64,000 nt of DNA from a virus. The first letter of the stretch is position 1. The number at the start of each line of letters is the position of its first letter. The stretch covers positions 1-64,000 of IMG/VR virus record IMGVR_UViG_3300024052_000085; one strand, 5' to 3'. Shown here in pieces: positions 1 through 25,812 of the stretch. Below the pieces are notes generated by a model. That model was not told where the DNA came from. It saw only the letters and a list, made by a program, of their open reading frames with translations, and did no database searches. The position numbers were made by a program, and so were the translations under genes.

Positions 1-33
1 CCCGGGGGTCAGGGGGTGTCTACATAATAATAT

Positions 34-70
34 CGACATCAGGGGACGACCTCGAGTTAGACGACATCAG
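34..70 (+). repeat. 9-bp direct repeat CGACATCAG (34-42, 62-70) near the window start
   Basis: Exact copies seen; shares the CATCAG core with the internal promoter motif. Confidence 0.6.
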
Positions 71-99
71 AGGACAGCGAGTATTATATATATAGATTA

Positions 100-128
100 A
101 TTATATAGATGAATTAGATCTATATAAT
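100..128. repeat. AT-rich perfect 11-bp inverted repeat (ATTATATAGAT / ATCTATATAAT, 7-nt spacer)
   Basis: Seen directly; possible operator or origin element. Confidence 0.6.
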
Positions 129-275
129 AGATCTTCTCTAGATGAGAAAAGTCCCTGGGAGGAGTCTGCTTATGGACTAATCTGAGCACTCTCTGTTTCT
201 AGTTGGGAGAAGGCGCTCGGCGAATAACTAAGATCTGAGGGAAGTGAGGGTACGGGCGAGGATGGATTATCTATA

Positions 276-701
276 ATGCCTCAAACAGCTCGCGCTATCG
301 CTAAGTCCCAATCTACCGGAACGACCTCTCAGTCGAATAGAGACTACCACAATAGCTCACGTGGTCAGTTTAGAGATGCGCTCTGGTCTGAGTATCAGAA
401 GGACGCTCGCGCAATTACAACTCTCTGGAAACAGGGACATGCGCTCGCGGATGGAACTCCCTTTACTGAAGATATGGCTGACGCTGCTATAGCTACGCGT
501 TATCTCAAGTACAAGGAAGATCTGGCCTTATATGCTCCGGCTAAGAAGGAGCGGGGAGGCACGGCAAGGGTTATGATGTCTGGAGACGCGCAAGCGGCTA
601 TAGATGCAATGCTCTCTGCTCGTGGATCTGAAGTCTCGATCATGGATAAGGCTGAGGAAGTTGCGGAAGGTGCGGACGCAGTGAAAGCGAAGAAAGAGTA
701 A
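276..701 (+). CDS. hypothetical early protein
   Basis: ORF with upstream GAGG/GGA; locally higher GC; followed by a hairpin. Confidence 0.6.
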   Translation: MPQTARAIAKSQSTGTTSQSNRDYHNSSRGQFRDALWSEYQKDARAITTLWKQGHALADGTPFTEDMADAAIATRYLKYKEDLALYAPAKKERGGTARVMMSGDAQAAIDAMLSARGSEVSIMDKAEEVAEGADAVKAKKE

Positions 702-793
702 CTGATATAGGGGGCTTACTAATGGAACAATACTGTAAGCTCTCTAGGTCAGGGACTATGGAATAAAAAGTCTCTGGTATTAGGAGGTCCTTC

Positions 794-1018
794 ATGGACA
801 AGATCATCGTTTCGGCGATGGCTCGTTGTGAGAGGACTAGGTGTAACGTTCGAGTTAACTCTCGTTACGTGCTCGAGTCAGGCGTTCGACGTGCTTTCTG
901 TACTGAGAAATGCTTTATAGAGCAAGTGGCTAAAGAGAAAACTAATAAAGCGAAACGCTTAGTCATCAACGATGTGTCAGCTGTAGATATGGTAGAAGAT
1001 CTTTTGAAAGCGGTCTAA
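794..1018 (+). CDS. small Cys-rich (TRASH/MYM-like Zn-binding) protein
   Basis: CxxxxC...FCxxxC pattern; AGGAGG RBS. Confidence 0.5.
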   Translation: MDKIIVSAMARCERTRCNVRVNSRYVLESGVRRAFCTEKCFIEQVAKEKTNKAKRLVINDVSAVDMVEDLLKAV

Positions 1019-1025
1019 AGGGAAG

Positions 1026-1062
1026 AGAGAGAGGGGGTCTCAGAGATGAGATCCTCTTTTCT
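1026..1062 (+). terminator. stem-loop after the first two ORFs (terminator or processing site)
   Basis: GAGGGGGTCTCA-gaga-TGAGATCCTCTTTTCT. Confidence 0.55.
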
Positions 1063-1362
1063 ATAGTCGAGAGGACGCTGCGACTTTAAATAAAGGACTC
1101 AGGGGGGATTATTGCTCCTGGGTGAGGAGGAATCTTTGTTTATGGAGACTGGATATAGTTTCCTGAAGGTAAGATAATGTAGTGGATTTAACTCCCTTCA
1201 CTTAACCCACTATAGCCACATAGCATCAGATGAAAATCGAAAAACTTGTGGATACCATGGCGATTATTATATAATATATATAACAACTAAAAATCTAGAT
1301 AAATATAACGTATAACTGAGATATCAAAAAGGAGATGGATAAGAGTAACTAGATGTTTAGTA

Positions 1363-1713
1363 TTGTTAATATATTATAGGAGTAAGGTTTTGACGTCTAA
1401 GAATAAAATTGAAGAGTTTGAAGAGATTGAAGTCTCTAGTAACGGTTCTAGTAACGGATCATCGATGACTGATATGGAAGTAGATGCTCTGTTGGCAGAT
1501 GCTCTAAAGAAAGAGAACTACTCTAAAGAGTATAATCAACGTCCTGAGGTTAAAGAAGCTCGTAAGATTTATAACGAGTTGCGTCAAGCGAAACAGAAAG
1601 TAGGATCTCTGTTGTTGCACGAGCAAATCACGAGAGACGAGGCTGTGGCTTTCTTGAGTCAAATTAAGAATAAACAGGTCCCGGATCTCAAGATGTTTAA
1701 GGTATCTAGCTAA
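1363..1713 (+). CDS. hypothetical helical protein
   Basis: ORF track; start uncertain. Confidence 0.5.
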   Translation: MLIYYRSKVLTSKNKIEEFEEIEVSSNGSSNGSSMTDMEVDALLADALKKENYSKEYNQRPEVKEARKIYNELRQAKQKVGSLLLHEQITRDEAVAFLSQIKNKQVPDLKMFKVSS

Positions 1714-2793
1714 TGAAGATAGGGAGGAGGGAGGGATCTCTTTGTTGATTAGATATATTAGAATAGAAAGACTAAGGAGAAAGGCTTTGAGAAAAACGAT
1801 ATATCCCGTAGGTATGCCAAAGGATAAGAAAAACGAAATCTCTCGAAAGAGCGGTTATGTTGCTTTGTGTCATCTACGAGACAGTTACAGAGAAGAATAT
1901 CGTAGCGCTGTAACTAGTATTACTGGTGACAAAAAGTTAAATACTACTCATAGAGCTATGGTTATTGTCTCGAATGCTCATACAACAGAATATGATCAAT
2001 TGAGAATCGACAGTCGTACTATATTAATTAATGAATGGATTGCGATGGAAGCAAGTCCTTCAGAGTTAAAGGCTTGTGCTAATAGTGCTTTTAAGTCAAA
2101 GGAAGAAGATCCTAAGCAATCCGAGTCTTTGAGTTTCTTTGGAAAACTACTCTCAAAAGTAGGACTTAGAAACGTTAACTAATGTGTACGAGAGCTGGAG
2201 AAATAACGCATGAACCAGAACATCAGGATTGTATTTGGTGTTGTTGGTGTGACTGTTTTGGGGATTGTCATATTTCTCTTCTCGAATGCAATCAAAAGGA
2301 ATTAGATTATTTTGAAGATCTTTATAAAGGAGGATTTGGAACATAATGAATGTAATAACGTTTAGTAATAGAGAGAGAGGAGAGTTCTTTTTCTCGACTG
2401 ATCATTGTCAAGGAGCGAAGGAAGATACAATTCTAGATAATAATTGGGTTCCGGTTACTCAAAGATTACCAATTAGAATAGTTCCTCGTCCAGGCTTTGA
2501 GAATGGTATGATTAGAACTATTGATGGGCTTATAGCTATCTTCTTCTCTGATATGACTTTGATAGCTAATCCAGATGTGAGGTTTCGAAGGTGAATAGAT
2601 TAATTGACTATGGCAAAATTGATAGATGTCCAATATCTGATGTAGACTATAGCGAAGATGATGAAGTTCTAGTTACTGTTGAACTGAGTGACTTTAGAGA
2701 TGTTAGAATCTCGTATAAAGCTATAGTAGCACTGTATGAAGGACTGATGGAGAATCATCCAGGTTATCCTGATAAGTTATATGAGGTTTGTAA

Positions 2794-6667: not shown

Positions 6668-7660
6668 GTGGGACATACTATTGTATTAAGGGCAAACAAG
6701 AACGATAATGGATGTCACTGGAACTCCAATCAGGATGGCGTCCGCCCCAATAATTCAAATACCTGCAAATATAAAGGAGTACTAATGGTACGCAAATTAT
6801 TTGGCTCAACGGAAAATATTGTTATTGAACCTAGTCAAGAACAAAATTCTTTATTCGAACATTCTAGAGTTAATGTTACACCTTTAATAGCTCGAGAATG
6901 GTTAGATACTATGATTGTTAATCGTAGACCTGTAAAGAGTAAGATTAAACAATACGGCGAGTCTATGAAACAAGGTAAATGGTTCGATCAGGGTGAATGT
7001 ATTAAGTTTGACTTTGAAGGTCATCTTAAAGATGGTCAGAATAGATTACTGGCTATAATTGATCAAGATATGACTGTTCCTTTAGAAGTACTTAGAGGAG
7101 TTCATCCAGAATCTCAAAAGTATATGGATATTGGGGCAGCAAGGAAGCCTGCAGATAGTCTATATATGGCAGGTATTGAATATTCTTCAAAGATTAGTAC
7201 GTCTCTAACTTTATTGAATCAATACGATAGTCAAGGGTTCATAAGCATTCAGGGAGGTAGTAAAAGGTTAAATACTTTCGAAGTTATTGAAGCTTTAGAA
7301 AAGTATCCTGGTATAGTAGATAGTGCTAAGTGTATCTTTAATACTTCTGTAGCTCAGAAACTTATGACTGGTTCTCATTTGGTATTCTGTCATTACATCT
7401 TTAATAGGATTGATCCGAATGTGTGTACTTCTTTCTGGGATCAAGTAGATAAGGGTTACAATCTTACGAAAAATGATCCGATTCATCTTCTGAGGGAAAA
7501 GATGATAACTAATAAAGCAGCTAGTCTTGCAACTAAGCAAAATCCAATAGTTATGATAGCTTTTGTTGTAAAGGCGTGGAACCTTCACAGAGCAGGTAGA
7601 AGTATTAGTCGGTTACAGTATTCAGCTACCAGCAACGATCAGTTTCCGAAGGCAATTTAA
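6668..7660 (+). CDS. ParB-N-like / DGQHR-type domain protein (probable start ATG 6785)
   Basis: TPxxAxxWL..NR..Y..M..GKW..LKDGQNRLLAI motif; AGGAG before ATG 6785. Confidence 0.7.
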   Translation: MGHTIVLRANKNDNGCHWNSNQDGVRPNNSNTCKYKGVLMVRKLFGSTENIVIEPSQEQNSLFEHSRVNVTPLIAREWLDTMIVNRRPVKSKIKQYGESMKQGKWFDQGECIKFDFEGHLKDGQNRLLAIIDQDMTVPLEVLRGVHPESQKYMDIGAARKPADSLYMAGIEYSSKISTSLTLLNQYDSQGFISIQGGSKRLNTFEVIEALEKYPGIVDSAKCIFNTSVAQKLMTGSHLVFCHYIFNRIDPNVCTSFWDQVDKGYNLTKNDPIHLLREKMITNKAASLATKQNPIVMIAFVVKAWNLHRAGRSISRLQYSATSNDQFPKAI

Positions 7661-9799: not shown

Positions 9800-10663
9800 A
9801 TGCAGTTCGATAGAGATAAAAGAAAAGCTTATGCTAGAGAGTATCAAGCTAATAAGAAGAGGGAACAAGATCTTCTTAAGAGATGGATAGCTGAAAATCC
9901 TGAAGCTTATCAGAAAAAGTTAGCAGTTATCAAAGCTAAAGCTGATAAAGAGCAATCTAGAGTTCAAGATTTCAGGGATATTGTAGGTACTGAGTACTTT
10001 AAAGCAGTTTCAATACATGCATGTCCTGATTTAATGTGTGAGTGCGGTATTCCGGAGTCTCCAGCTATGCATTCTCCTATGCAAAGATCTAAGAGAAATT
10101 GTAGTACGTGTGGAGAAGACTATTCTGCAGTATTTTATCAAGTAGGATATGAGACTAAAGATCAACATAAATGCGATAGATGGGGTCTGTTTGTAATGTC
10201 TCCTCAAGAATATACTTCTATCAGTAAGGTAGATGGATTGTATAATCAATGGTCTAATAAAGTAATGTTAGCAGGTCCTGGAGAAAGGTATAATAACAGT
10301 AAACCTAATGGACATATAACTCTACAATGGTTTAAACCTTCTAGAGCTTTGTTTGCTGTATGTAATTACTGTAATGAAGGTTTAGATCAAGGGTATCTAT
10401 CTTTCGCAGAAAGAGTTCATAATACTATCTCTGGTCAAGGACATTATGGAGACTCTTTACTGTCGTGTTTAAGATGTACAGAGAAACATTATCAAGCTCC
10501 TCTACCTTTCCAGTGGGAAATTAGAGATTGGGAGATTGGATTCTTTAGTAATAAAGAGTTTGATTGGAGCATTCATCATCAATCTCAAAGAGATGAGATA
10601 GAGAAAAACTTTATGAAATATAAAGGGTATTTAGATTCTATAGACTTTAATGATCTGAGGTAA
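9800..10663 (+). CDS. multi-Cys Zn-binding protein
   Basis: Several CxxC pairs; charged N-terminal helix. Confidence 0.55.
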   Translation: MQFDRDKRKAYAREYQANKKREQDLLKRWIAENPEAYQKKLAVIKAKADKEQSRVQDFRDIVGTEYFKAVSIHACPDLMCECGIPESPAMHSPMQRSKRNCSTCGEDYSAVFYQVGYETKDQHKCDRWGLFVMSPQEYTSISKVDGLYNQWSNKVMLAGPGERYNNSKPNGHITLQWFKPSRALFAVCNYCNEGLDQGYLSFAERVHNTISGQGHYGDSLLSCLRCTEKHYQAPLPFQWEIRDWEIGFFSNKEFDWSIHHQSQRDEIEKNFMKYKGYLDSIDFNDLR

Positions 10664-10668
10664 TTGTA

Positions 10669-11229
10669 TTGGTTCACGATAATCCCGAATTTTTAAGTAA
10701 GGTTAAGGGGGTTGTTTCCTTTCATAAGAAGGGAGACAACTCTGATATTGCATTAGTAACTAGAGAGTGTCCTTATTGTTGGACAAGCGTAGAACAACCT
10801 GTTGAACATATATATGTTACCTGTCTTAGTTTATGGGGAACTTATATTTGCAGTAGTTGTGGAACTTATTATTACTTTGTAGGTGATAATATATATCAGT
10901 ATATCCCAGAAGCTCAGTTAATGCATATTCCTCATTATGCAAAGAGACCTTCTAGATTAGATACTATTAAGGATTATAATAGTCTATTTTATAGGGCCAA
11001 AGCTTTTAACTGGTTTGATACGATAAATCTGGAAGAAATAAGTATAGTTGAAAATGTTTGGACTATGGCTATAGAAGTTGCAGCTCAAATGAATACAAAG
11101 CTTAAGACAGGTATAGCTCCTGGATATAGTATTGGATACGAGTTATCTGGGGAGTTAGATCCTCAATCTTTAAATAGCGTAAAATTTGTTGAAGCTTTGG
11201 AGTTTCTTAAGGAGAAGGAGTTAGTGTAA
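10669..11229 (+). CDS. Zn-ribbon protein
   Basis: CPYC...CSSCG. Confidence 0.5.
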   Translation: MVHDNPEFLSKVKGVVSFHKKGDNSDIALVTRECPYCWTSVEQPVEHIYVTCLSLWGTYICSSCGTYYYFVGDNIYQYIPEAQLMHIPHYAKRPSRLDTIKDYNSLFYRAKAFNWFDTINLEEISIVENVWTMAIEVAAQMNTKLKTGIAPGYSIGYELSGELDPQSLNSVKFVEALEFLKEKELV

Positions 11230-11501: not shown

Positions 11502-12031
11502 TCTGCGATAATTTAGAATATGCCATTAATGAATATTGTCTAGAATCTGGAAAGTTTCCAATATCAGATGGTAATTATGTTTCTAGTTGGATAGATCTAT
11601 ATCCTTTGACATGTAACAGGGAGTTTAGTAATTTAATTACTGAATCTCTCTGTTCTAAATTGTTTTCAAACTTTTGGCAATTTAGTTATGTAGCGGGAAA
11701 AGAACTTCATGGAACTCTATTAGCCAGTAGTTTAGTGGCCAAATGTAAATGGATAGATTCTGATTTGGTTATTGTACGTAAAGAAGCTAAGTCTATTAAA
11801 GTTCCTTATAATTTCGAGAAAGATTCTAATGAAAATAAATGTATTTTATTGGATGAAGTTATAAGTTCAGGTACTAATATGGAGTCTTCAATTATAGATC
11901 TAAACAATAGAGGATTTCAGGTAGTTGGAGTAATGAGTGTAGTATATAGAGGTGGAGGAGCTAAAGAGAAAGCAGAAGGGATGGGTATTCCTTTTGACTA
12001 TCTATATAAGATTCCCGAGGAGTTGATATGA
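11498..12031 (+). CDS. type I phosphoribosyltransferase, orotate PRTase (PyrE)-like
   Basis: GKF..S.G..SS..IDL, VRKE loop and PRPP-binding ILLDEVISSG. Confidence 0.75.
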   Translation: MICDNLEYAINEYCLESGKFPISDGNYVSSWIDLYPLTCNREFSNLITESLCSKLFSNFWQFSYVAGKELHGTLLASSLVAKCKWIDSDLVIVRKEAKSIKVPYNFEKDSNENKCILLDEVISSGTNMESSIIDLNNRGFQVVGVMSVVYRGGGAKEKAEGMGIPFDYLYKIPEELI

Positions 12032-12665
12032 GTTATAGATTAGTAGATTTAATTCTTAAAGAAGAGTCTAGAAGAGGACGTAGAAATGTACGAGACAGAC
12101 TTGCTAGAGAATATATTCAGAATCATCCAGAAATAAAACAAGATCCGAATAGTATTATTGATTCTAACGATATTCCTGAAGGCACTACTGAAAGTGCAAT
12201 AAGGGGTATAGCTAGATTTTACAATAAATCTAGTTTAGTAAGACAGATATTACGAGAACGGAGAAACGATGACAACACCGAACAGGCCGAATCGTCGAAG
12301 GCAACCGAGTCCAGCCGAACTACAGAGTAGGGTAGATGCCTTATCTCGTTGGATTTCAAGAGATAGAGCTCAAAGAATGGCTCCCTATATGCCTAATCCA
12401 AGTGGTAATAGTCCGGGAGCTAGACGTACTCAAAGAATTTTAATAGCTATGAGAGCTAGAGTTATGGATGCTCAAAAACAATTAGAAAATGAATCGATTG
12501 TTGATGTCGATACTGGTGATCTTATTCATCCTATTTACGGTGTTGTAGATGAGGGTCGTAGATATCGGGGAGGTAACTATGGTAACCTTGCTATAGACGT
12601 AGCTACTACAGATGTTGAAACTATGATATTTACTGGAGATACAGATAATTTGGAGCCTGAACTAC

Positions 12666-14390
12666 ATGCTATCGTCAGCCCGTGATAAATGGGAGCTTGA
12701 ATCTCAAGAAAGATATAAAAGACTCTTTAGAAGTGAACCTGAATATGAACAAGAAAGAGAACTTCCAGATATAATTGCAAATAGGTTTGCTAACTCTCCT
12801 TCAGGTATGGGATTTCATGGTTTAAAGATAGAAGTTGACAACCTAGGAAATCCTAGACTTTGGTCAGAACAGGAAGAGTTAGATACTTATGATATATTTG
12901 AATGGATATTAGATAAAGAAGCAGTAACTTCAGTAGATGGTAGAGGGGTCTTTGATAGTATATTTAAGATTCTTAGTCCTAAACAGATAAAGGAGATTGC
13001 AATATTAGGTAAGACTACTATTTCAGATGGTACTCAACTGATCATACCAGGCAATGCTCCTTGGCTATCTGTACGTAAAGGTAATAAGACAGGTAAACTT
13101 ACAAATATTTATGGTCTTTTGTCTTTACAGAAGGAATTTGATACTGAATTTACAGATCCTGCACACTTTAGGAAGGCAACAGAACTGGCACATGCTAGAT
13201 TATGGAATGCAGGTTTAGGAGATTTAAGTATTAGATCTCCAGGTAACTTAATTGAGGCTATGGTTATTAGAAAATCTCCTCGGCAACCTTTACCTAATCT
13301 ATTACATGTCCAAAGGTTTGCGACAGCATTTAAACCTGCAAGAATAGAAGGTACTACGTTTGGGATTAATGAGGTAATTGACTACGATATTACTTCTGCT
13401 TTTCCTTCCGTTATAAGTGACTTAGTCGATTTAAACTCAATATATTGGTTAGATACTCATAAGCCTCAAGACGAAGCTATTTACGCAGCTATTAGATGTG
13501 ATTTGGAAATAAATCAATCTTTGATTAGAGGACCTATATCTGTAAGGTTAGGTACTAATTCGTCTTTCTTTCCTATAGGCATTATTTCAAGTATTTGGAT
13601 TAGTAAACCCGAATATGATTTGTTAAAAGATTATCCGGAGCTTGGTAAAGTTACTACAATACACGAAGCTTCTTGGGGTTGTCTAAGTAATCCTGAAAGT
13701 GCTGAAATTTATCCTTTCAGACGTCTACTTAAGAATTTATTGTTCCCTCTACGTCAGAGAGATAAATTTTTAGGTGGATATCTTAAATTAGCTATGGCAG
13801 CTTTATGGGGTAAGTTTATTTCTTCATATGAAGTTCAAGATACTTTGGATGGTGAGAAATATACTAGGTCTTCTAGTCTTTATAATCCTATATTTGCCTC
13901 TCATGTTACGGGAGCAGTTAGAGCTAGTCTTTATAGAACTAGCTTAGGTAAAGAAGTGGTAGGAGAATTCGTAGATGGTATAGCCTTATTAGAGTCTACT
14001 AGAACAAGAAATGGTTTTGGAGGTCTAATTCAAGAAGGCTCTGGAACGATGGTTCTATTCGACGATCAATATAAAGGTTGTGATTGGAAGAATCCTGAAG
14101 TATTAGTTTGGGCTCAAGGATATAAAGATAAGTATTTCTTCGAGATGCCAAGAAATTACAGAAATTCTTTACAATTTGCATATCAGAAATTTGGAACTGA
14201 TGGAGCAGCATCTGAAATGTCTAGGGAGTCTACTATAATGCAGCATATACCTATAGGACCTTCTAGAAGACTTATGGATGCTTACAGAGTAGGAGACTTC
14301 TTAAATTATTCTCTACCTAGTGCACCTCCTAGAATGTCAGATTTAATGACAATAATGTATCAGAGATCATTTAGTAGGAAGATAAGATAA
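12666..14390 (+). CDS. degenerate family B DNA polymerase, protein-primed-like
   Basis: Motif A YDITSAFPS, motif B KLAMAALWGKF, YNPIFASHVTGAVR (Tx2G/AR), motif C reduced to FVDGI. Confidence 0.7.
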   Translation: MLSSARDKWELESQERYKRLFRSEPEYEQERELPDIIANRFANSPSGMGFHGLKIEVDNLGNPRLWSEQEELDTYDIFEWILDKEAVTSVDGRGVFDSIFKILSPKQIKEIAILGKTTISDGTQLIIPGNAPWLSVRKGNKTGKLTNIYGLLSLQKEFDTEFTDPAHFRKATELAHARLWNAGLGDLSIRSPGNLIEAMVIRKSPRQPLPNLLHVQRFATAFKPARIEGTTFGINEVIDYDITSAFPSVISDLVDLNSIYWLDTHKPQDEAIYAAIRCDLEINQSLIRGPISVRLGTNSSFFPIGIISSIWISKPEYDLLKDYPELGKVTTIHEASWGCLSNPESAEIYPFRRLLKNLLFPLRQRDKFLGGYLKLAMAALWGKFISSYEVQDTLDGEKYTRSSSLYNPIFASHVTGAVRASLYRTSLGKEVVGEFVDGIALLESTRTRNGFGGLIQEGSGTMVLFDDQYKGCDWKNPEVLVWAQGYKDKYFFEMPRNYRNSLQFAYQKFGTDGAASEMSRESTIMQHIPIGPSRRLMDAYRVGDFLNYSLPSAPPRMSDLMTIMYQRSFSRKIR

Positions 14391-15079
14391 TGTCGCTTAA
14401 ACAAAGAGAGAAAATTATTAGCGAGCACTTTAGAAGATTGGCTGATCCTGTATTTGCTAGAAGAAGTAATGTTCAGTCAATGCATACTAGATATAAGACT
14501 ACAGATGTAATTAGAATGCATTCTAAGCTTTCGAATCCCGACTTTAAGGGTCTAATGCTGAAAGCTGATGAACTAATGATTAATGAGAATATTACTCTAT
14601 GGGAACCTTCCTCTCCAGATTGGACAAATGAGGTTCTTTATCACATACATTATGATCCTGACATTAGAGAAGATAAGGAAGATCTTGCAGATAGAGAAAC
14701 TGAGTATGAACGTAGAAGAAATGTTACTCAGTGGAGAGATGAATTTCCAGATATTCTTAAAGAATATAGCTGGAACAGATTAGACTGGTTATGGGATATG
14801 TCCTGGTCCTTCTATGTTTCCTATAGAGACCAATTTAGACAAGGACATTTACAAGTATATAAAAGTATTCTAGGAGAAATACCTAGAGGATTAGAAGATA
14901 TTCCATATCAAAGTGTTATGACAGCTGAACGTAAGTATCGACAAAGGTCTTTTAATGAAAAGATGAGCAAAGCAATACTAAGAAAAGATACTGAAACTCT
15001 AGAACATATGGGCTTTACAGAAGATGAAATCTCTAAAGCATATGAGCGTGCTGATCATATACAATCTCGAAGGGGGTAA
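14390..15079 (+). CDS. helical protein coupled to PolB (terminal-protein candidate, speculative)
   Basis: TAATG-coupled to the PolB gene; size and position only. Confidence 0.3.
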   Translation: MSLKQREKIISEHFRRLADPVFARRSNVQSMHTRYKTTDVIRMHSKLSNPDFKGLMLKADELMINENITLWEPSSPDWTNEVLYHIHYDPDIREDKEDLADRETEYERRRNVTQWRDEFPDILKEYSWNRLDWLWDMSWSFYVSYRDQFRQGHLQVYKSILGEIPRGLEDIPYQSVMTAERKYRQRSFNEKMSKAILRKDTETLEHMGFTEDEISKAYERADHIQSRRG

Positions 15080-15131: not shown

Positions 15132-15971
15132 ATGACAACAACATCTGTCTGGGTTGACGGAAAAAAAGGAAAAACGTTAGATGTATCAGAATACATAGAC
15201 GGTTCTCCATGGGATGGAGAATATGCTACTTTCAATATGATGATTTATGGTGAACCTGGAGAAGGTAAGACTCCTCTATTAGGTTCAGTTGTAGATGTTC
15301 CTTCAATGCTTCCAGCATTGCTTATTGATTGCGATTCGGGAACTTTAAGTATTCGAAACAGAGATGGATTGAATACGTTACATCTTAATAAGATGGCCGC
15401 TCAACTCTCAAATGAACAAGGTAAAGAGATAAGTCCTTGGAAAGCTCTTGAAGAGACTTATAGATGGTTGACTCAAGACGATCACGATTACAAAACCGTA
15501 ATGTTAGATGGAGGTACAGAGATACAGAGATACTGTGAGTTAGAATGTATAGCTTATGGTATTGAAAAGAAGAATTCAGGAGACCATGATCCAGAGCTTG
15601 CTGAACTTGCAGACTATAGAAGGATTCACGAAAGAATGAAGCGTATGTATATGCGTTTTAGAGACCTTCAAACCAAAGATGGTAGAAGGATAAACTTCTT
15701 AGCAACAGCACATGAAGGTAAAGCTAAGGATGATCTTTCAGGTAAGATGTATATTCAACCTTTATTCATAGGAAAAGCTACAGTTCTTATCTCTTCTGTT
15801 TTCGATATATTAGCAAGACTAACTACATCCGATGTAGGTACTAAGAAGGATGTTAAGGTTCTTGTTCCTGCTGTTAATGGTACAGCTAGAGGACGAGATA
15901 GATCAGGCAGTTTAGGTGGGTTTGTTGAAGACCCTACAATGGCAAAGTTAGCAGAAAAAATAAGAGGTTAA
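15132..15971 (+). CDS. AAA_24 / Sak4-like P-loop ATPase (recombinase-associated)
   Basis: Walker A YGEPGEGKT, LLIDCD, VMLDGGTE, ATAHE; adjacent to SSB. Confidence 0.8.
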   Translation: MTTTSVWVDGKKGKTLDVSEYIDGSPWDGEYATFNMMIYGEPGEGKTPLLGSVVDVPSMLPALLIDCDSGTLSIRNRDGLNTLHLNKMAAQLSNEQGKEISPWKALEETYRWLTQDDHDYKTVMLDGGTEIQRYCELECIAYGIEKKNSGDHDPELAELADYRRIHERMKRMYMRFRDLQTKDGRRINFLATAHEGKAKDDLSGKMYIQPLFIGKATVLISSVFDILARLTTSDVGTKKDVKVLVPAVNGTARGRDRSGSLGGFVEDPTMAKLAEKIRG

Positions 15972-15982
15972 GAAAAGGATTG

Positions 15983-16550
15983 TTAGATGTTTGAAATCTC
16001 ATCTAGGGGAAGGTCCTTAGCACATAAAATTATATATAAAAGAAATGGTGAATACATTGGTTAAAGTTAATTTGGCAAATCAAGAAATGCGAACCTTCGA
16101 TCCCGTACCTGCTGGTACTTACAGAGTAACTGTAGATCAGTGCGAGGAACGTCAATCTCAGATGTCTGGCAATGCCAACATCTTCTGGCTGTTCCGTATT
16201 ACTGACGTCATCAGCACTCAGGGTGATGGAGGCGGCGCTGGTCTAGTAGATCGTACTATTATGCATGGAACTTCTCTTCAGGAGAGCGCTCTTTGGAATC
16301 TCTTCCGGACTCTAGTAGCTCTGGGTGAAGATCCTCAAGGATTGCAGGATGGTGAGTTTGAACTCGAGCCTGATACTCAGATTGGTAAGGAGTGTGTAGT
16401 TACTGTTCGTATCCGTGACTACCAAGGTCAGCCAACAAATAACATAACAGCTCTTCGGGCTCTGTCTGAGTCTGAAGCCGGTGCTCTAGCCTAGGTTATA
16501 ACCTAAAAAGTAGTACCTCACTTCCCCTAGATGAGGTCTCAGGCATCTAA
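15983..16550 (+). repeat. 30-nt long-range inverted repeat (15983-16012 / 16521-16550) bracketing the SSB gene
   Basis: 15-bp perfect core CTCATCTAGGGGAAG/CTTCCCCTAGATGAG, extended by G-U pairs. Confidence 0.85.
16045..16494 (+). CDS. DUF669-like single-stranded DNA-binding protein
   Basis: FDPVPAGTY...S..SGN...IGKEC.V.V....YQG...N.I pattern; follows the Sak4-like ATPase. Confidence 0.75.
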   Translation: MVNTLVKVNLANQEMRTFDPVPAGTYRVTVDQCEERQSQMSGNANIFWLFRITDVISTQGDGGGAGLVDRTIMHGTSLQESALWNLFRTLVALGEDPQGLQDGEFELEPDTQIGKECVVTVRIRDYQGQPTNNITALRALSESEAGALA

Positions 16551-18338: not shown

Positions 18339-18398
18339 ATGAGAAAACGTAGGCGTACTAGAGGTAATAAACGTTATATTAAATATAAGCGAGGTTAT

Positions 18399-19103
18399 AT
18401 GAAAGGATTGGTTTTACATTCAGGAGGATTAGACTCTTCTACGTTACTTGCAGCGGCTGCAGATGAGTGTGATGAGGTAGTAGGTCTTTCTATTGCATAC
18501 GGTCAAAAACATCAAGATAGAGAGATTAGAGCAGCGAGGGAAGTTTGTGCTTACTTTAAAGCAGAGCATCTTGAAATTGAGTTGCCAGATGTCTTCAAAG
18601 GCTTTGGTAGTACTCTTATGGATTCTGATAAAGATAATCCGCATCTTACCTATGAAGAGATCCGCGCTAGCGAAGGTCCTTCTCCTACGTATGTTCCGTT
18701 CCGAAATGCGAATCTTCTTTCCATAGCAACAGCAACTGCTCAGATACATAAATGTGATATAGTATACTTTGGAGCTCACTCGGATGATGCTCACAATTAT
18801 GCTTATCCTGATTGTACTCCTGAATTCATTGGAGCTATGGCAAATGCTATTAGTGTTGGAACGTATTATACTGTACGGTTGAAAACTCCTATTATGTGGA
18901 TGACTAAAGGTCAAGTTACTGAATGGGGTCAAAGTTTAGGAGTTCCCTTTGCAATGACTTATTCTTGTTACGAAGGTACTGAGATACACTGTGGAGAATG
19001 TCCTACCTGTGTTTCAAGACAAGTAGCGTTTGAGGAGGCAGGCATTGACGATCCCACAGAATATACCGGAGGAGCCCAACGCGAAAAAGCCATTCACGGT
19101 TAG
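18399..19103 (+). CDS. queC: 7-cyano-7-deazaguanine (preQ0) synthase
   Basis: SGGLDS, YGQKH, TYVPFRN, YPDC, TYSCY..HCGECPTC; start moved to MKGLVLHSGG. Confidence 0.95.
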   Translation: MKGLVLHSGGLDSSTLLAAAADECDEVVGLSIAYGQKHQDREIRAAREVCAYFKAEHLEIELPDVFKGFGSTLMDSDKDNPHLTYEEIRASEGPSPTYVPFRNANLLSIATATAQIHKCDIVYFGAHSDDAHNYAYPDCTPEFIGAMANAISVGTYYTVRLKTPIMWMTKGQVTEWGQSLGVPFAMTYSCYEGTEIHCGECPTCVSRQVAFEEAGIDDPTEYTGGAQREKAIHG

Positions 19104-19251
19104 TCTAAGTATCTCTTATAGTGTTCCAAGACGCTACTCCAGAATACAAGCTGAAAGTAAAGAACAAGCTTTAGAAATTGCTCTAGAACAGTTACAAAAA
19201 GATACTTGGGGAGTACAGGATGTTAAAGTAATGTCAGTTGAAGAGGGTTAA
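19045..19251 (+). CDS. small protein with AES.E.A.E.A motif
   Basis: TTG start 6 nt after GAGGAGG; overlaps the queC end. Confidence 0.45.
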   Translation: MTIPQNIPEEPNAKKPFTVSLSISYSVPRRYSRIQAESKEQALEIALEQLQKDTWGVQDVKVMSVEEG

Positions 19252-19954
19252 TGTGGTAGACGCTTTAGATATTAAGAAAATAGAAGTTACGGAGATCTTT
19301 AGTTCTCTTCAAGGAGAGGGTAAGAGATGTGGAGTTCCTGCAACCTTTGTAAGATTAAGAAGATGTAATCTAGCTTGCATATGGTGCGATCAAAAAGAGA
19401 CTTGGGATGTAAACGATCCTGGGTATAACAATTATGAACTTAAGCATATATCTGAAATAAGACAACAGATATTAGACTACAATAATAGACTATTAGTTAT
19501 TACAGGAGGTGAACCTCTACTTTGGCAAAGAGAGCTAAGATATTTAATTGACTCAATGCCAAGTGAGATTAGTATAGAGATAGAATCTAACGGAACTATA
19601 GATCCAAGTTTTCTAAAGTTGACTAGGACTGAATTTAATATTTCACCTAAGATGTCTAACTCTGGAAACGGTGAAAGAAATACTAAAGTACATGACGAAT
19701 ACCTCGATCTATTTAAACTTAGAAGGGTCGTATTTAAGTTTGTAGTTAAGACAGCTAGTGATTTTGAAGAGGTAGATAGGTTTGTAGCTAATTATAATTT
19801 AAATCCTAAAGGTATTTATGTTATGCCTGAAGGAGTTGACCGAGAAACCATTTGCACTAGACTTCCAATCCTCTTCGATTATTGTAATGAGAGAGGATAT
19901 AATTTAACTACTAGATTACACGTTCTAGCCTTTGGAGATATGAAAGGAGTTTAA
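19238..19954 (+). CDS. queE: 7-carboxy-7-deazaguanine synthase (radical SAM)
   Basis: EIFSSLQGEG, CNLACIWCD, TGGEPLL, ESNGT, ISPK. Confidence 0.93.
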   Translation: MKRVNVVDALDIKKIEVTEIFSSLQGEGKRCGVPATFVRLRRCNLACIWCDQKETWDVNDPGYNNYELKHISEIRQQILDYNNRLLVITGGEPLLWQRELRYLIDSMPSEISIEIESNGTIDPSFLKLTRTEFNISPKMSNSGNGERNTKVHDEYLDLFKLRRVVFKFVVKTASDFEEVDRFVANYNLNPKGIYVMPEGVDRETICTRLPILFDYCNERGYNLTTRLHVLAFGDMKGV

Positions 19955-20145
19955 ATGCTAAGATCAACCATGATTACATGTTGCTATAAAGTATGTGGTA
20001 AAAACCATGGTTCTTCCCTAGGGTTACACTTTGATACTGATATTAAAGAAGTGTATTGTAACGTAAAGTGTTATGTAGAAGACTATTTCCTGAAACATAC
20101 AGGAAGACAAGGCGAAATTATAGAAACTGATAGAGGGTATAATTA

Positions 20146-20823
20146 ATGGTAGAGCAGACTAACGAAGATCCAAGAGTAGTTGGAGGAGACTTTACAGAGA
20201 TTGTAAAATCAAGAAATAAAGGAGTTGAAGAAGATATTAATTATGGAGATAAAGAGAGAGGTAAAGATTTAGAAGACGCAGCTAAGTTAATAATCAAAGC
20301 TCTAGGCGAAGATATAAATGCAGAAGGACTATCTGAGACTCCAAGACGTTTCAGAGAAATGTTTATGGAGGATTTCTGGCCTGGAGATTCTTTAGATACT
20401 GTTCTAGGTGAAATGGTAATGGAAGAAAGCTTTGACCAAATGGTTATAGTTAAAGATATCCCAATCCGTTCACATTGCGAACATCACATATTACCTTGGT
20501 GGGGTAAGGTTTGTTTAGGTTATATTCCTCATGCTAAAACTGTTGGGTTAAGTAAAATGACTAGAATGGTTGATGCAGCAGGTAAAGGACTAACTATTCA
20601 AGAGAGAGTAACTGATAGTATTGCTCAGAGTATGAATAGAGTTCTAGATCCTAAAGGTGTAATGATAGTAGTTGAAGCAGTTCATATGTGTACTCTAATG
20701 AGAGGAGTAAAAACTGAAATGCAAAGATTTACTACCAGCACGGCTAAAGGAGTATTCTTAACTAATTCAGCACCTAGACAAGAGTTTCTAACCTTGTTTG
20801 CTAAAAATGGAAGTTTGATTTAA
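20146..20823 (+). CDS. folE: GTP cyclohydrolase I
   Basis: GL.ETP.R, SHCEHH.LP, GLSK, IQER, HMC..MRG. Confidence 0.95.
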   Translation: MVEQTNEDPRVVGGDFTEIVKSRNKGVEEDINYGDKERGKDLEDAAKLIIKALGEDINAEGLSETPRRFREMFMEDFWPGDSLDTVLGEMVMEESFDQMVIVKDIPIRSHCEHHILPWWGKVCLGYIPHAKTVGLSKMTRMVDAAGKGLTIQERVTDSIAQSMNRVLDPKGVMIVVEAVHMCTLMRGVKTEMQRFTTSTAKGVFLTNSAPRQEFLTLFAKNGSLI

Positions 20824-20828
20824 TTTCT

Positions 20829-20954
20829 TCTCTAGCTTTGCTAGAGAGGTACTGTTGATCGGGAAACCGGCATGAGGATCACCTCCCTCAAACTACCTCC
20901 CGTCACGTGTGGGGCCGGCTGTAATCGTGGTTATCAACAGTACCTCTCTAGTAA
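20829..20954 (+). ncRNA. structured sRNA candidate with anti-SD (CCUCC) motifs
   Basis: Perfect 19-bp closing stem 20841-20859 / 20933-20951; internal GGATCACCTCCCT and CTACCTCCC. Confidence 0.6.
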
Positions 20955-20971
20955 ATATAAAGGAGAAATAA

Positions 20972-21175
20972 ATGTTAACAACATTCGAAGAATTGCAAGT
21001 CTATCTTAGATCAGAACATCCATCAAGTCATAGTGTAGGGCCTTGTGTACTGTGTAGTGAAACAACTTCTGATAGATGTATTAGATGTAAAAAGTATTTC
21101 TGCGGAACTCATGTAGGACGTAAAGACTGTATCACCCCTAGAGATCTGTATGCAAATAAAATTGAAGATCGTTAA
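20972..21175 (+). CDS. small Zn-finger (AN1/B-box-like) protein
   Basis: CxxC...CxxC...CxxH...C. Confidence 0.55.
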   Translation: MLTTFEELQVYLRSEHPSSHSVGPCVLCSETTSDRCIRCKKYFCGTHVGRKDCITPRDLYANKIEDR

Positions 21176-21189
21176 GGAAGAGTTAAAGG

Positions 21190-22269
21190 ATGCTTATAGA
21201 GAGTTTACACGGAGAATCTCAATGGACCAGAAGTCCAATGACCAACGGAAATATAAGAATGTCAATGACAGAAAACTGTCCTAGACAACAAGTGTATGTC
21301 GCTTTGGGGATAGAACAAGACTATCCTGAGACTGGAAGATCTCAAATGGCTGCTGATGATGGTAATCTACATGAAGCTGATGTAGTAAATAGATTCTTAG
21401 CAGCTGGTTATCGTTGTTGGAATTACGGTGAAGACCAAGCTATGGTGCATTTTGAAAGGGATGGTGTACGCTTTAGAGGACATCCTGATTTATTCATGGA
21501 AACTCCCGAAGGTGAAGTAATAGGAGTAGAACTCAAAGGTTATAGAGATGAAACCTTTAGACAGTTCGTTCAAGGAGCTGTACAGACAGTTCCAGGAATG
21601 TGGTCTGTTTCAGATTGGTCTAAACTAACTAAGAGACCTTATCCTTTAATGGGTCAATTACAAATGTATCTTCATTCTGATACTTCTACTAGTTATGGAA
21701 TAGATAAATGGGTTCTAGTTATGAAGAATAAAAACACTGCAGAGCTAGCTGAGTGTATTATTACTAAAGATGACGATTATATTAATAGACTAATAAGAAA
21801 GTGGAAAGGTTTCTGGGCTTATATTGAAGCTGGAAGACTTCCAGATAGATTCTTTGGAGATGATAGCATAGAATGTCGAAGATGTCTGTTTCGTCAAAAG
21901 TGTTGGAATCTTGGTGAAGTATTTACTTCAAAAGAGGATGTAGTTCACGTTAAAGGTTTAGAGAAGTTTGCTTCTATGCGAAGAGAAGGAAGTCTTTTAA
22001 AGAAGGATGCTGAAGGCCTATTAGAAGAATCTAGAATGGCTTTTCTAACTGAACATATTAATAAAGAAGCTACTAGGATAGAGTGTGACGGTCTTACAAG
22101 TACTGTAAGCGAAAGAAATAGAAGAGGTTTAGATAGTACAGAAGTAAATAAGGTTCTGGCCTATATGCTAGAAAAAGGTAATATTGACGATCAACAATAT
22201 GATGATTGTTTTAATGATGTAAGTTATCAGGAGGTTAGATTTAAAGATGTTAAACCCCGAGATGCCTGA
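21190..22269 (+). CDS. Cas4-like PD-(D/E)xK exonuclease
   Basis: CPR, GHPD, ELK, QLQMY and C-terminal CRRC..RQKC cluster ligands. Confidence 0.8.
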   Translation: MLIESLHGESQWTRSPMTNGNIRMSMTENCPRQQVYVALGIEQDYPETGRSQMAADDGNLHEADVVNRFLAAGYRCWNYGEDQAMVHFERDGVRFRGHPDLFMETPEGEVIGVELKGYRDETFRQFVQGAVQTVPGMWSVSDWSKLTKRPYPLMGQLQMYLHSDTSTSYGIDKWVLVMKNKNTAELAECIITKDDDYINRLIRKWKGFWAYIEAGRLPDRFFGDDSIECRRCLFRQKCWNLGEVFTSKEDVVHVKGLEKFASMRREGSLLKKDAEGLLEESRMAFLTEHINKEATRIECDGLTSTVSERNRRGLDSTEVNKVLAYMLEKGNIDDQQYDDCFNDVSYQEVRFKDVKPRDA

Positions 22270-22627: not shown

Positions 22628-23378
22628 TCCAGCTAAATATTCCAATTATCATTTAGTATTGGCAAATGAAGTTATTAGTGATAACAGTTACGCTAATTAT
22701 TATAGCTCACTCGCTATCGACCATACTATTATTCTAGATAGCGGAACTGTCGAAATAGGTTATGCAGATTCTGAAATGATATTTGCAGCAGTAGAGAAAT
22801 TAAATAGAGAAGTTATTGTAGTTGCTCCAGATTTCTTAGGAGATAAAGATCGTACAATATTAGAGACTGAAGACTTTCTAAGTCAGGATGGATGTCCTGG
22901 CAAAGATAATGTAATGATAGTACCTCAAGGTGAAACTCCTGAAGAGTGGATTGAATGTTTTGATTACTTAGATCTTAATTACAATGAAAAGTTTAAGTGG
23001 GTTGGGATCCCTAGGATATCAGAAGACTTTCCAGGAGGTAGAAGTTGGTTGTATCAAAATGTAATGCAGATACACCGTAGGAGGAGGAGTATGAATGATC
23101 AACCTAAAATTCATCTTTTGGGACTACAACATACTTTAGATGAGATAGAATGGGCAAAACATTTCAGTTCTAGAATTGTAGGTGTTGATAGCAGTGCTCC
23201 TCTTAAAGCCGCAGAAATTAACGTTTTATGTTCTGAAGTTGTAGACTTTAGATTACTTACAGATATAAATGTAAATCCTTCAGAGGATTTAGTAGCCGAA
23301 AGAATACAAGAAATGGTTGAATATACTTCTTTCAGATGGAGTGTTAAAACTCAGGGAGAATTAATAAATGGAGCCTAA
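22593..23378 (+). CDS. DpdA-like TGT-fold DNA base-exchange (transglycosylase) protein
   Basis: ILDSG, APD..GD, VPQG, IHLLG, GVDSS motifs in TGT order; que gene context. Confidence 0.7.
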   Translation: MKFAPVLSEKYDPAKYSNYHLVLANEVISDNSYANYYSSLAIDHTIILDSGTVEIGYADSEMIFAAVEKLNREVIVVAPDFLGDKDRTILETEDFLSQDGCPGKDNVMIVPQGETPEEWIECFDYLDLNYNEKFKWVGIPRISEDFPGGRSWLYQNVMQIHRRRRSMNDQPKIHLLGLQHTLDEIEWAKHFSSRIVGVDSSAPLKAAEINVLCSEVVDFRLLTDINVNPSEDLVAERIQEMVEYTSFRWSVKTQGELINGA

Positions 23379-25812
23379 ATATCCTGGATGTAATTGCGAA
23401 GAGTGTCCTTTAAAAGATGAAGGTTTTGTTCCACCTAGCGGACCTGAAGATTCTGATATCTTATTTATAGGACAAGCTCCTGCATATTACGAAGTTAGGA
23501 GTGGTAAACCCTTCTCAGGACCTTCAGGTAGTGTACTCGATGGTTCTCTAGAGAGTGTAGGATTACGTCGAGAAGACGTAAGAACAGATAATAGTGTACT
23601 TTGCTTTAATGCAGCAGGTTCAGGAGATCCTTCAATAGCTGCAGTAAGAGCATGTAATGGGCACATTAAAGAGGCTTTAAGTAAATCTAAATATGTTGTA
23701 CCTATGGGCAATAGTGCTTTAACTGCTATCTTTGATAAAGAAGTTGAAGGAATAACTCAATATGCTAATACACTATTCAGGCATAACGATAATATTATTC
23801 TTCCGCTAATACATCCAGCATTTTATCTTAGACAGTCAGGTGAAATGTTTAGAGACTTTTTAGAGGGTATGGCTCTACTCAAAGATCAAATAGACGGAGG
23901 TACTCTTTGGAATGACTTAGACTTTAAGTTTACAGTATTTAGGACTGTAGATGAAGTGATTCCTTTTCTAGAGAACCTCAGAGATAATCCTCCAGAGACT
24001 CTTGCAGTTGACTTAGAAACAGATTTCCCAGATCCCGTAAGAGGTGTTATAACAGGTGTTTCGCTTTGTAGTAGATATGATGAGGCTTTTATTATTCCTT
24101 GGGACTCTAACTATTTGGAAAGTCACGGAAGCGATATTGAACCGCTTTTGGAATATCAAAACGTCTTCGACTTGCTCAAAGAAGCTTTAGAAGCTCAAGA
24201 TGGAGTAGTAATGCATAATGCTCCTTTCGATGCAAGACTATTACGTCGAGAGGGTATAAATATTAGAGTCAGAGATGACAGTCTTTTAATGCATTATGCT
24301 TTAGATGAAAGAGCAACATCTCAAGGATTAAAGAAAGTTGCTAAAGTAATGTTAGGTATTCAAGATTGGGAATCTGATCTTAAACAATACTTACCTAATA
24401 AGGCCGCTCCGTATACTATGATACCTCCTGAAGTATTATATCCTTATGCTGCTAGGGATGCATGCTATACTTTAGTCTTGAGAGATTTACTTAGGAAACG
24501 TTTAGATGCTCCGGGAAACGAAGGTCCGTCATCTTTATACGAAAATATCTTAACTCCTTGTAACGAACTACTAATGGCTCTTAGTTTAGAAGGCGTGTCT
24601 ATGGATTCGCAAATTCTTGTAGACGCTATGACTGAGATGCCTGCTAAGCTTACAGAGCTAGAAAAAGAATTAGAAGAGTTGTCAGGAGATAGATGGTTTA
24701 ATCCTAGAAGCCCTAAACAGATTTCTGAAGTTATGTTTGGAAAACTTGGATTGAGACAGATTAATGGAACTAGTACAAATAAAGAAGTATTAGAACAGCT
24801 CTCTGGAGAACATGCTTTTGTAGATACTCTTATAGAGTATAGACAGTATCTAAAAGTATCTTCTACCTATATGGAAAACTTTGCTAAGAGTTACCAAAAT
24901 GGTAAAGGTTATCCAGATCTAAGATTATTTGGAACTGTTACAGGAAGGTTAAGTGGTAGTAAACTTAATCCTCTTACAATGCCTAGAGAGAGTAGAGGTG
25001 ATTTATATCGTTCTATAAAGAATGTATTTATAGCAGATCCAGATTGTTTCTTATGGGCTTCAGATTACAGAGCTGCTGAATTAAGAGTTATGGCTGTATT
25101 AGCAAACGATGATTGGTTAATAGAACAATTAAGTAGTCCTGATATAGATTTTCACTCTATAATGGCTGAACAAATATTCGGCGAAGAATTTATGGGTGCG
25201 GATAAATCCAGACAGAAGGAACTTCGAGTTATAGCAAAGATGTTCGTCTTTGGTCTTAACTATGGAAGAGAAGCTCCCTCAATAGCTAAACAGTTAGGTT
25301 GCGGCATTAATGAAGCTACTGATTTAATAGCAAAATATTTTAAACCAATGCCTAACGTATTAGCATGGCGTAAAGAAATGGAACGTACAGCTGTTGAAGA
25401 TGAATATCTAGAGAATCCTTTTGGAAGACGAAGACGCTTTTCTTTAATAACAAAAGATAATATTCATGATATAAAGAAGCAAGCTATTAACTCTCCAGTA
25501 CAAGCTACAGCTAATGATCTTAACTTACTAACTATGGAAAGGATTAGAAGAGAGCTTGGACCTGAAGTAAGAACATTATGGCCAGTACATGATAGTATAC
25601 TAATGAATGTTAAGGAGACAGTACCTAACGAAACACTATATGATCTAAGAGATATACTGTTTAAATATCCCAGTGAATTACTAAAGACAAGACTTCCTTT
25701 CTTTATTGATATCGCAGTAGGATATGCTTGGGGAACCTTAAAAGAAGTTAATGAAATTGAAGAGATTAAGGGTGCTTTAGCTCAACTCACACCTAGCAAC
25801 TCAGCATCATAG
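23368..25812 (+). CDS. polA: family A DNA polymerase with N-terminal family-4 UDG-like domain and 3'-5' exonuclease
   Basis: CxxCPL, GQAP, PFSG.SG, HPAF (UDG); DLET, HNAPFD, YAARD (exo); TGRLS, DYRAAELR, AKMFVFGLNYG, NSPVQ, VHDS. Confidence 0.93.
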   Translation: MEPKYPGCNCEECPLKDEGFVPPSGPEDSDILFIGQAPAYYEVRSGKPFSGPSGSVLDGSLESVGLRREDVRTDNSVLCFNAAGSGDPSIAAVRACNGHIKEALSKSKYVVPMGNSALTAIFDKEVEGITQYANTLFRHNDNIILPLIHPAFYLRQSGEMFRDFLEGMALLKDQIDGGTLWNDLDFKFTVFRTVDEVIPFLENLRDNPPETLAVDLETDFPDPVRGVITGVSLCSRYDEAFIIPWDSNYLESHGSDIEPLLEYQNVFDLLKEALEAQDGVVMHNAPFDARLLRREGINIRVRDDSLLMHYALDERATSQGLKKVAKVMLGIQDWESDLKQYLPNKAAPYTMIPPEVLYPYAARDACYTLVLRDLLRKRLDAPGNEGPSSLYENILTPCNELLMALSLEGVSMDSQILVDAMTEMPAKLTELEKELEELSGDRWFNPRSPKQISEVMFGKLGLRQINGTSTNKEVLEQLSGEHAFVDTLIEYRQYLKVSSTYMENFAKSYQNGKGYPDLRLFGTVTGRLSGSKLNPLTMPRESRGDLYRSIKNVFIADPDCFLWASDYRAAELRVMAVLANDDWLIEQLSSPDIDFHSIMAEQIFGEEFMGADKSRQKELRVIAKMFVFGLNYGREAPSIAKQLGCGINEATDLIAKYFKPMPNVLAWRKEMERTAVEDEYLENPFGRRRRFSLITKDNIHDIKKQAINSPVQATANDLNLLTMERIRRELGPEVRTLWPVHDSILMNVKETVPNETLYDLRDILFKYPSELLKTRLPFFIDIAVGYAWGTLKEVNEIEEIKGALAQLTPSNSAS

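Follow-up and report, generated by a model that had tools for sequence, protein, structure and literature searches.

Published surveys describe protein-primed DNA replication as limited to genomes of less than 50 kb that encode no helicase and no other polymerase and for which three components suffice: a protein-primed family B DNA polymerase (pPolB), a terminal protein and a single-strand DNA-binding protein (SSB) of unusual type (PMC4889955, PMC5695915). Here we describe a family B DNA polymerase (hereafter called PolB) encoded within positions 1 to 64,000 (the window) of virus record IMGVR_UViG_3300024052_000085, a single 78,758-bp contig. PolB is a phi29-type polymerase that appears to have lost proofreading and kept catalysis. 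Its genome, of about 80 kb, also encodes a complete polymerase of the PolA type, a helicase, an annealase and an SSB, with which PolB is conserved. We searched the literature and found no description of an exonuclease-dead phi29-type PolB combined with a PolA, which does not prove that none exists. An initial annotation of the window had called PolB a degenerate, protein-primed-like polymerase coexisting with a full PolA, and had proposed that PolB primes at the genome ends and PolA synthesizes the bulk. The division of labour is still a tentative proposal with a serious rival; the word degenerate applies to one half of the enzyme.

PolB is hard to recognize from its own sequence. The protein has no Pfam match at all (PF03175 above the gathering score included) and none in NCBIfam, and its match to a PHROG for DNA polymerase is weak (E 3e-4). 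A close-family profile matched nothing in the PDB, tblastn against 50,697 phage records gave no match, and no relatives were found among 185,579 GTDB genomes. The wider family gives a clear answer. A whole-library HMMER search returned 213 representatives at E <= 1e-3, and we aligned 60 of them (mean column identity 21%). PF03175 (DNA_pol_B_2) is carried by 22 of these 60 relatives (best E 7.9e-24), and the 60-sequence profile matched phi29 DNA polymerase in the PDB (E 8.7e-7). An AlphaFold2 model built on the alignment (predicted local distance difference test, pLDDT, 93.5; predicted template modelling score, pTM, 0.91) has the family B fold, with an exonuclease domain, palm, fingers and thumb, and the top nine Foldseek matches to it are all phi29 DNA polymerase chains (E about 1e-12). 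The product of open reading frame (ORF) 12666..14390 is thereby shown to be a family B DNA polymerase of the phi29 type, complete in structure; the PolB fold, whose absence would have refuted the initial annotation by its own terms, is there. We also considered an identity among the RNA/DNA-primed PolBs and rejected it: their structural scores were half those of phi29, a gap explained by the compact architecture that PolB and phi29 have in common.

The motifs quoted in the initial annotation, DITSAFPS (residues 241–248), KLAMAALWGKF (374–384), FVDGI (435–439) and GLKIEV (52–57), lie where it had put them in this ORF, and each falls in homologous columns of the 60-sequence alignment. Distant relatives read G-x-D-x-E-x-x, YNLKYD, KxxMNSxYGK and xTDS/xTDG in the same columns as the PolB motifs, so that the latter are homologous to canonical motifs rather than chance look-alikes. 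Only five residues are invariant across the 60 sequences: G233, D241, K374, G382 and D437. When the profile is aligned to phi29, KLAMAALWGKF pairs with KLMLNSLYGKF (motif B) and V-V-G-E-F-V-D-G-I with I-I-Y-C-D-T-D-S-I (motif C). The second pairing makes D437 the second, metal-binding Asp (phi29 D458) and places Phe435 in the position of the first. Motif A, D-Y-D-I-T-S-A-F-P-S, aligns with the D-F-R-S-L-Y-P-S segment of KOD polymerase; residues 405–419 read LYNPIFASHVTGAVR.

Loss of the first motif C Asp might be taken for decay. We see no sign of it, because exonuclease-proficient relatives read HTDS or ATDG at this site in the alignment, and because experiments on primer-independent PolBs (piPolBs) showed that a PolB without the first Asp is fully active, the second carboxylate alone being required (PMC5695915). 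Motif C is altered, as first proposed, but the Asp that is kept is the catalytic one, and the loss of the other is shared with exonuclease-proficient relatives and active piPolBs. The ratio of nonsynonymous to synonymous substitution rates (dN/dS) of PolB against its near relatives is 0.039 (L005), 0.089 (L006) and 0.088 (L007), which, combined with invariant catalytic residues, indicates strong purifying selection on a working protein. Judged by these comparisons, PolB is very probably a working polymerase. Degenerate is thus a fair word for the exonuclease site, which is lost, but not for synthesis residues D241, K374 and D437, which never vary. We rejected a pseudogene or decaying gene on the same values (dN/dS 0.04–0.09, invariant catalytic residues), and the invariant catalytic residues make a non-catalytic role unlikely.

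The exonuclease half tells a different story. Exonuclease-proficient distant relatives have a canonical G-x-D-x-E (ExoI), YNLKYD (ExoII) and a conserved ExoIII Asp. In PolB the ExoI columns read K54-I-E56, and its own clade varies freely there (K/R/G/L/S and E/D/T/V/S/N); alignment with the proficient relatives bears out the Asp-to-Lys change first suspected at K54. The ExoII Asp (D97) is retained, and the ExoIII (YxxxD) Asp column is variable (D/Q/E/T/S). The fold of the domain is kept though its DEDD site is gone. Read column by column against the proficient relatives, this loss means that the 3'-5' exonuclease of PolB should be dead and proofreading absent. On sequence grounds PolB appears to belong to a distinct, exonuclease-dead clade within the pPolB+piPolB supergroup.

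In phi29, TPR1 is the insertion that binds the terminal protein. The AlphaFold2 model of PolB has about 100 residues (252–351) between motif A and the fingers helix, and the second half of this TPR1 aligns by sequence with phi29 residues 288–358. Of the two TPR subdomains that were expected of a protein-primed enzyme, then, TPR1 is present and the TPR2 position is held by a shortened hairpin.

PolB is part of a conserved module. We took 32 related loci from IMG/VR and JGI/ENA metagenomes (marine water, deep sea and sediments). In all informative loci the gene order is p100, p138, PolB, p229, Sak4-like AAA_24, DUF669 SSB, QueC and QueE, with insertions in some, and this order is maintained down to 35% PolB identity. 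The small protein p100, which matches nothing in Pfam or NCBIfam, is 41–65% identical across loci (blastp) where PolB is 35–69% identical. In loci L028 (3703-4671) and L022 (3566-4534) a UvrD-like superfamily 1 (SF1) helicase of 322 aa stands between PolB and the p229 homologue; distant relatives with this insertion also have a class II ribonucleotide reductase (RNR) and ThyX in the module.

The full PolA was correctly noted: Pfam identifies all its domains, including an N-terminal domain of the uracil-DNA glycosylase (UDG) superfamily, and we call the protein UDG-PolA. From these domains we predict that UDG-PolA is the proofreading polymerase of the genome. Locus G001, the sole whole record from a distant relative, has a PolB only 35% identical and encodes a UDG-PolA at 43% identity over its full length; in the close relatives L001 and L005, collinearity extends through PolA. 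Since close relatives share the pairing of PolB and PolA, as does one relative at deep divergence, it is not accidental. The contig also encodes a dUTPase and, just past the window, an SNF2 helicase (contig 66543..67955). The initial annotation had recognized no primase or helicase in the window; the SNF2 gene, which lies on the contig beyond it, amends the picture for helicases. For primases the negative stands: we scanned all 101 ORFs of at least 70 aa with Pfam, and all but 17 also with PHROGs, and found no primase, recombinase/integrase or protelomerase family. Without these families, some unconventional form of priming would be needed. Two CxxC-rich ORFs of 287 and 186 aa at 9800-11229 have no family match and are possible sites of an unrecognized primase.

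What do the genome ends look like? Genes of the contig are nearly all on the + strand; a block at 74.7–78.6 kb points leftward, away from the right end. At either end of the contig, early-type genes are directed inward. When the ends, and the contig with itself, were compared by blastn, a single inverted repeat emerged in 78,758 bp: 1623..1738 recurs without mismatch, in reverse complement, as the final 116 bp (78643..78758). Its inner boundary is sharp, the flanks diverging at once; the right copy reaches the last base and the left copy is unbroken to position 1. There is no exact end-to-end inverted repeat of the contig and no direct terminal overlap, the latter arguing against the circular or terminally redundant genome that had been named as the alternative. 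A repeat present once, a unique body and about k-1 bases of re-entry into the repeat are what de Bruijn collapse of a long inverted terminal repeat leaves behind. Read in this way, the contig represents a linear genome whose inverted terminal repeats are 1,738 bp each and whose total length is about 80,380 bp, and we consider it probable that the 116-bp signature is such a repeat. The terminal inverted repeats anticipated at the outset are thus visible as an inverted pair at the contig end, with repetition seen for 1623..1738 only. In the independent assembly of L005, a virus 85–92% identical, the contig end projects to about position 1650, inside the repeat.

The layout of the left end looks like an origin, to judge from its sequence. 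It includes 14-nt direct repeats, CGACATCAGRGGAC, whose pattern recurs nowhere else in the window, where chance alone would give 0.02 matches, and the contig starts with CCC, though the exact assembled end is uncertain. Terminal reiteration of the CCC kind serves sliding-back in protein-primed systems. IMG/VR scans with the proteins of ORFs 276..701 and 1363..1713, with the right-end 168-aa protein and with the terminal 20-mer gave no match, and G001, a 35.9-kb fragment of a related virus, has no inverted repeats. The first ~1.1 kb are markedly G+C-rich (the G+C fraction is 0.42 in the first 2 kb and about 0.36 in the remaining genome), and ORFs 276-701 and 794-1018 in this left end have no IMG/VR relatives.

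Two neighbours of PolB, p138 and p229, are candidates for the terminal protein, as was first suggested, and either may fill that role. The terminal-protein gene lies directly upstream of the polymerase gene in phi29, PRD1 and Bam35, the position held here by p138. This protein accompanies PolB in 16 loci; its N-terminus is rich in Arg, and six of its residues never vary (M1, R21, M61, L132, S137 and P138). Its C-terminal Ser-Pro is conserved even at loci where p138 and PolB do not overlap. Downstream of PolB, p229 is present in the 24 related loci matched by blastp and has an invariant Y157 and an invariant RLDWxWD motif. Its AlphaFold2 model is all-helical (12 helices, pLDDT 86) and matches no known fold. 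The predicted complex of PolB with p229 scored 0.00 in a run without controls, a value that carries no weight for or against binding.

Table 1. Features of the polymerase locus and the left genome end (window positions; residue numbers refer to PolB)
Feature	Position	Strand	Remarks
Putative left inverted terminal repeat	1..1738	.	Repetition seen for 1623..1738; extension to position 1 inferred from assembly logic
Origin-like features	34..134	.	14-nt direct repeats at 34-47 and 62-75; AT-rich palindromic stretch 82-134
p100	12028..12330	+	Small protein, conservation above that of PolB
p138	12269..12685	+	Terminal-protein candidate 1; directly upstream of PolB, overlaps its start by 20 nt
PolB	12666..14390	+	Family B DNA polymerase, phi29 (protein-primed/primer-independent) supergroup; 574 aa
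PolB exonuclease-fold domain	residues ~47-200		Active site predicted dead: K54-I-E56 replaces DxE; ExoII D97 kept
PolB motif A	D241
PolB TPR1	residues ~252-351
PolB motif B	K374		Fingers
PolB TPR2-like hairpin	residues ~386-403		Short
PolB motif C	D437
PolB C-terminal extension	residues 530-574		Outside the phi29 alignment
p229	14390..15079	+	Terminal-protein candidate 2; start codon shares one base with the PolB stop codon
Sak4-like AAA_24 single-strand annealing ATPase	15132..15971	+	PF13479 6.7e-16, phrog_124 1.3e-39; always next in module
DUF669 single-strand DNA-binding protein	16045..16494	+	PF05037 1.1e-7, phrog_378
UDG-PolA	23368..25812	+	Complete PolA with N-terminal UDG-superfamily and 3'-5' exonuclease domains; PF00476 3.6e-70, PF03167 7.8e-20, PF01612 1.7e-11

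We propose that PolB starts protein-primed synthesis at the ends of a linear genome and that UDG-PolA carries out bulk synthesis, and we put the probability of this reading at roughly 45%. The genome would be linear, about 80.4 kb long, with inverted terminal repeats of ~1.7 kb; PolB would be the initiator polymerase and p138 or p229 the terminal protein. Synthesis would begin at the ends with dCMP opposite a terminal GGG and, after a short proofreading-free stretch, would be handed over to PolA, which together with the SNF2 helicase, Sak4 and SSB would provide the accurate synthesis of the bulk. A further role of Sak4 and SSB may be to regenerate duplex origins, by annealing either the inverted terminal repeats or displaced strands that are complementary. 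In its logic such a relay would be akin to the succession from Pol alpha to Pol delta/epsilon, except that the primer would be a protein and not RNA. What we infer here is the terminal-protein priming itself, which protein serves as primer, and the hand-off to PolA.

Several observations weigh against this proposal. The protein-primed viruses known so far have genomes below 50 kb, with no helicases or further components of a replisome (PMC4889955); the present genome breaks that pattern, and its mechanism may differ too. Neither p138 nor p229 resembles any known terminal protein. The inverted terminal repeat rests on one assembly signature, positions 1-1622 never having been seen inverted. TPR1 and TPR2 also occur in piPolBs (PMC5695915) and are therefore no proof of protein priming; moreover, the TPR2 region is 11–16 residues shorter than that of phi29 in the profile alignment (a beta-hairpin, 387–402, in the model), and the KxY region is non-canonical, reading Q-Y-K-G. 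A novel primase could also hide in uncharacterized ORFs, such as those at contig 68880..70370 (496 aa, adjoining the SNF2 helicase, with no family match and an uninformative Atlas result), 6668..7660 (330 aa) and the Zn-finger-rich 9800..10663 (287 aa).

The main rival, a serious alternative that the initial annotation did not consider, is that PolB acts like a piPolB: an exonuclease-less enzyme that, on unwound template, synthesizes short primers of DNA de novo, serving as PolA's missing primase with no terminal protein. No primase family was found on the contig, proofreading would bring a primase no gain, and a helicase, SSB and PolA suit an ordinary fork that needs primers. The piPolBs have TPR1 and TPR2, of which PolB has the first and a shortened hairpin at the place of the second, and likewise lack the first motif C Asp (SxTTDG; PMC5695915), and some exonuclease-proficient relatives of PolB read xATDG. 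At that position, however, PolB has Phe (EFVDG) where piPolBs have Thr. In piPolBs the signature KH-X8-KTRG replaces KxY (PMC5695915), and PolB lacks it: the region reads DDQYKGCDWK, and the strand at the site reads LFDDQYKGCDWK, placed through the profile alignment as far as phi29 residue 487 and by hand count beyond it. Characterized piPolBs have an active exonuclease whereas that of PolB is predicted to be dead, and the named sequences most closely related to the wider family are pPolBs of viruses. The context is not that of a pipolin either, with no recombinase/integrase in the 101 ORFs, no plasmid match for the family and no GTDB match. De novo priming would also leave the inverted-repeat signature at the contig end unexplained, and we consider it unlikely. 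The signature itself might not be terminal. The genome could be circular or permuted, with the 116-bp pair flanking a 1.6-kb, possibly invertible, segment, or the pair could be an assembly artefact; PolB would then have nothing to do with telomeres. Duplication is seen for 116 bp only. Yet the contig ends do not overlap directly, no invertase, recombinase or integrase family was found, and the right copy would, on this view, be an orphan 3' fragment of ORF 1363..1713 held at 100% identity. The contig crosses the left copy unbroken and its start has no k-mer overlap with the right copy, the picture of a graph tip and not of a loop. We regard a non-terminal repeat as somewhat unlikely.

PolB could instead serve repair, translesion or recombination-dependent synthesis with Sak4 and SSB, extending annealed 3' ends or copying a modified or damaged template, with the genome ends uninvolved. 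Throughout the clade PolB, p229, Sak4 and SSB are invariably linked, translesion polymerases have typically lost proofreading, piPolB has translesion activity (PMC5695915), and the genes of this genome predict DNA modified with 7-deazaguanine. Such a role would leave unexplained the choice of a phi29-type enzyme with TPR1, the priming of replication in the absence of a primase, and the signature at the end, and it strikes us as improbable. The least probable of the alternatives, in our estimate, is that PolB is the sole replicase as in phi29, terminal-protein-primed, processive and strand-displacing, with UDG-PolA confined to repair and gap filling. The phi29-type architecture and the evidence for inverted terminal repeats apply equally to this case, and in every protein-primed system studied, initiation and elongation are the work of one polymerase. 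But PolB would have to copy ~80 kb with no proofreading site and with a shortened TPR2, the element of processivity and strand displacement, and the virus has kept a proofreading PolA, an SNF2 helicase, Sak4 and SSB, which protein-primed viruses normally lack (PMC4889955).

The contig offers some clues to virion and host. Two tandem, nearly identical 66-aa proteins (26039-26239 and 26288-26488), each with two hydrophobic helices, precede an ORF of 2203 aa, and a P-loop ATPase of the Zot / M13 protein I type is placed at 34475-35272 by its Walker A motif. The ORF scans of the contig found no HK97-type capsid, portal or tail families, and the sole terminase match was marginal (PHROG E 6e-4). Together, the hydrophobic tandem proteins, the Zot-like ATPase and the missing families fit a virion without a tail, perhaps spindle-shaped or pleomorphic. 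Proteins with sigma-70 region 4 are encoded one per genome end (2794-3081, Pfam 5e-16; contig 74741-75202 on the - strand, Pfam 2e-7) and suggest that the host is bacterial and not archaeal; if so, the combination with a capsid module of this kind would be unusual. A 7-deazaguanine pathway (QueC, a radical-SAM QueE-like protein and FolE) occupies 18339-23378, and a PTPS/QueD-family ORF (Pfam 8.9e-29) was among 68 contig ORFs scanned in bulk. Inward from the right end, contig 75212-78594 (- strand) encodes small Cys-rich (CxxC-type) proteins and a dual-specificity-phosphatase-like protein (77126-77677, Pfam 9e-10), a run that is probably an early host-takeover block. The larger picture, in which a clade of viruses infecting marine bacteria, probably non-tailed, has linear genomes of ~80 kb with ~1.7-kb repeats that are copied by a relay from PolB and terminal protein to UDG-PolA, is doubtful when taken as a whole.

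If PolB does prime at the termini, it would represent a natural split between initiator and elongator among viral polymerases and a route for protein-primed genomes to grow large. If it does so in a two-polymerase relay, the ceiling of 50 kb and the rule of one polymerase and no helicase would both be broken. If it primes de novo, piPolB-type primases would be extended to viruses. Whatever its role, a compact, phi29-like polymerase that is naturally exonuclease-free and has altered residues in the nucleotide pocket (AA and W for NS and Y in motif B) is of practical interest for DNA amplification chemistry.

The proposed scheme recalls two cellular systems in its logic only. In the relay from Pol alpha to Pol delta/epsilon a proofreading-less initiator PolB is followed by a proofreading replicase, the primers being RNA from a primase. 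In the end-patching of Streptomyces telomeres, terminal-protein-primed synthesis is confined to the ends and other polymerases copy the bulk (PMC3273824); there Tpg and Tap act with cellular Pol I or Pol IV and no pPolB, and homology with the viral system is not implied. The piPolB of pipolins is in the same pPolB+piPolB supergroup, has TPR1 and TPR2, and is active with the first motif C Asp missing (PMC5695915). For the exonuclease-proficient wing of the family, the named sequences that come nearest are the pPolBs of His1/His2, Acidianus bottle-shaped virus and tectiviruses such as Rhodococcus phage Toil: an exonuclease-proficient distant relative of PolB matches them and matches no plasmid. 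To our knowledge, the exonuclease site is intact in all of these pPolBs. Their viruses are protein-primed and have linear genomes with inverted terminal repeats, as we suggest here, and one polymerase; the genomes of the matched records are 14–24 kb long, against a contig of ~79 kb. In some of the pPolBs from archaeal and bacterial viruses motif C varies too (PMC5695915), as it does in PolB. The phi29 DNA polymerase (gp2, PF03175; PDB: 1XHX, 2PYJ and 2EX3) is only about 10% identical to PolB in sequence. Compared with the phi29 enzyme, PolB has lost the ExoI and ExoIII carboxylates, has AA and W for NS and Y in motif B and Phe for the first Asp of motif C, has the shorter TPR2 and non-canonical KxY described above, and carries 46 extra residues at the N-terminus and 45 at the C-terminus. 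PolB is also found in a genome four times larger than that of phi29, which encodes in addition a PolA, a helicase, an annealase and an SSB.

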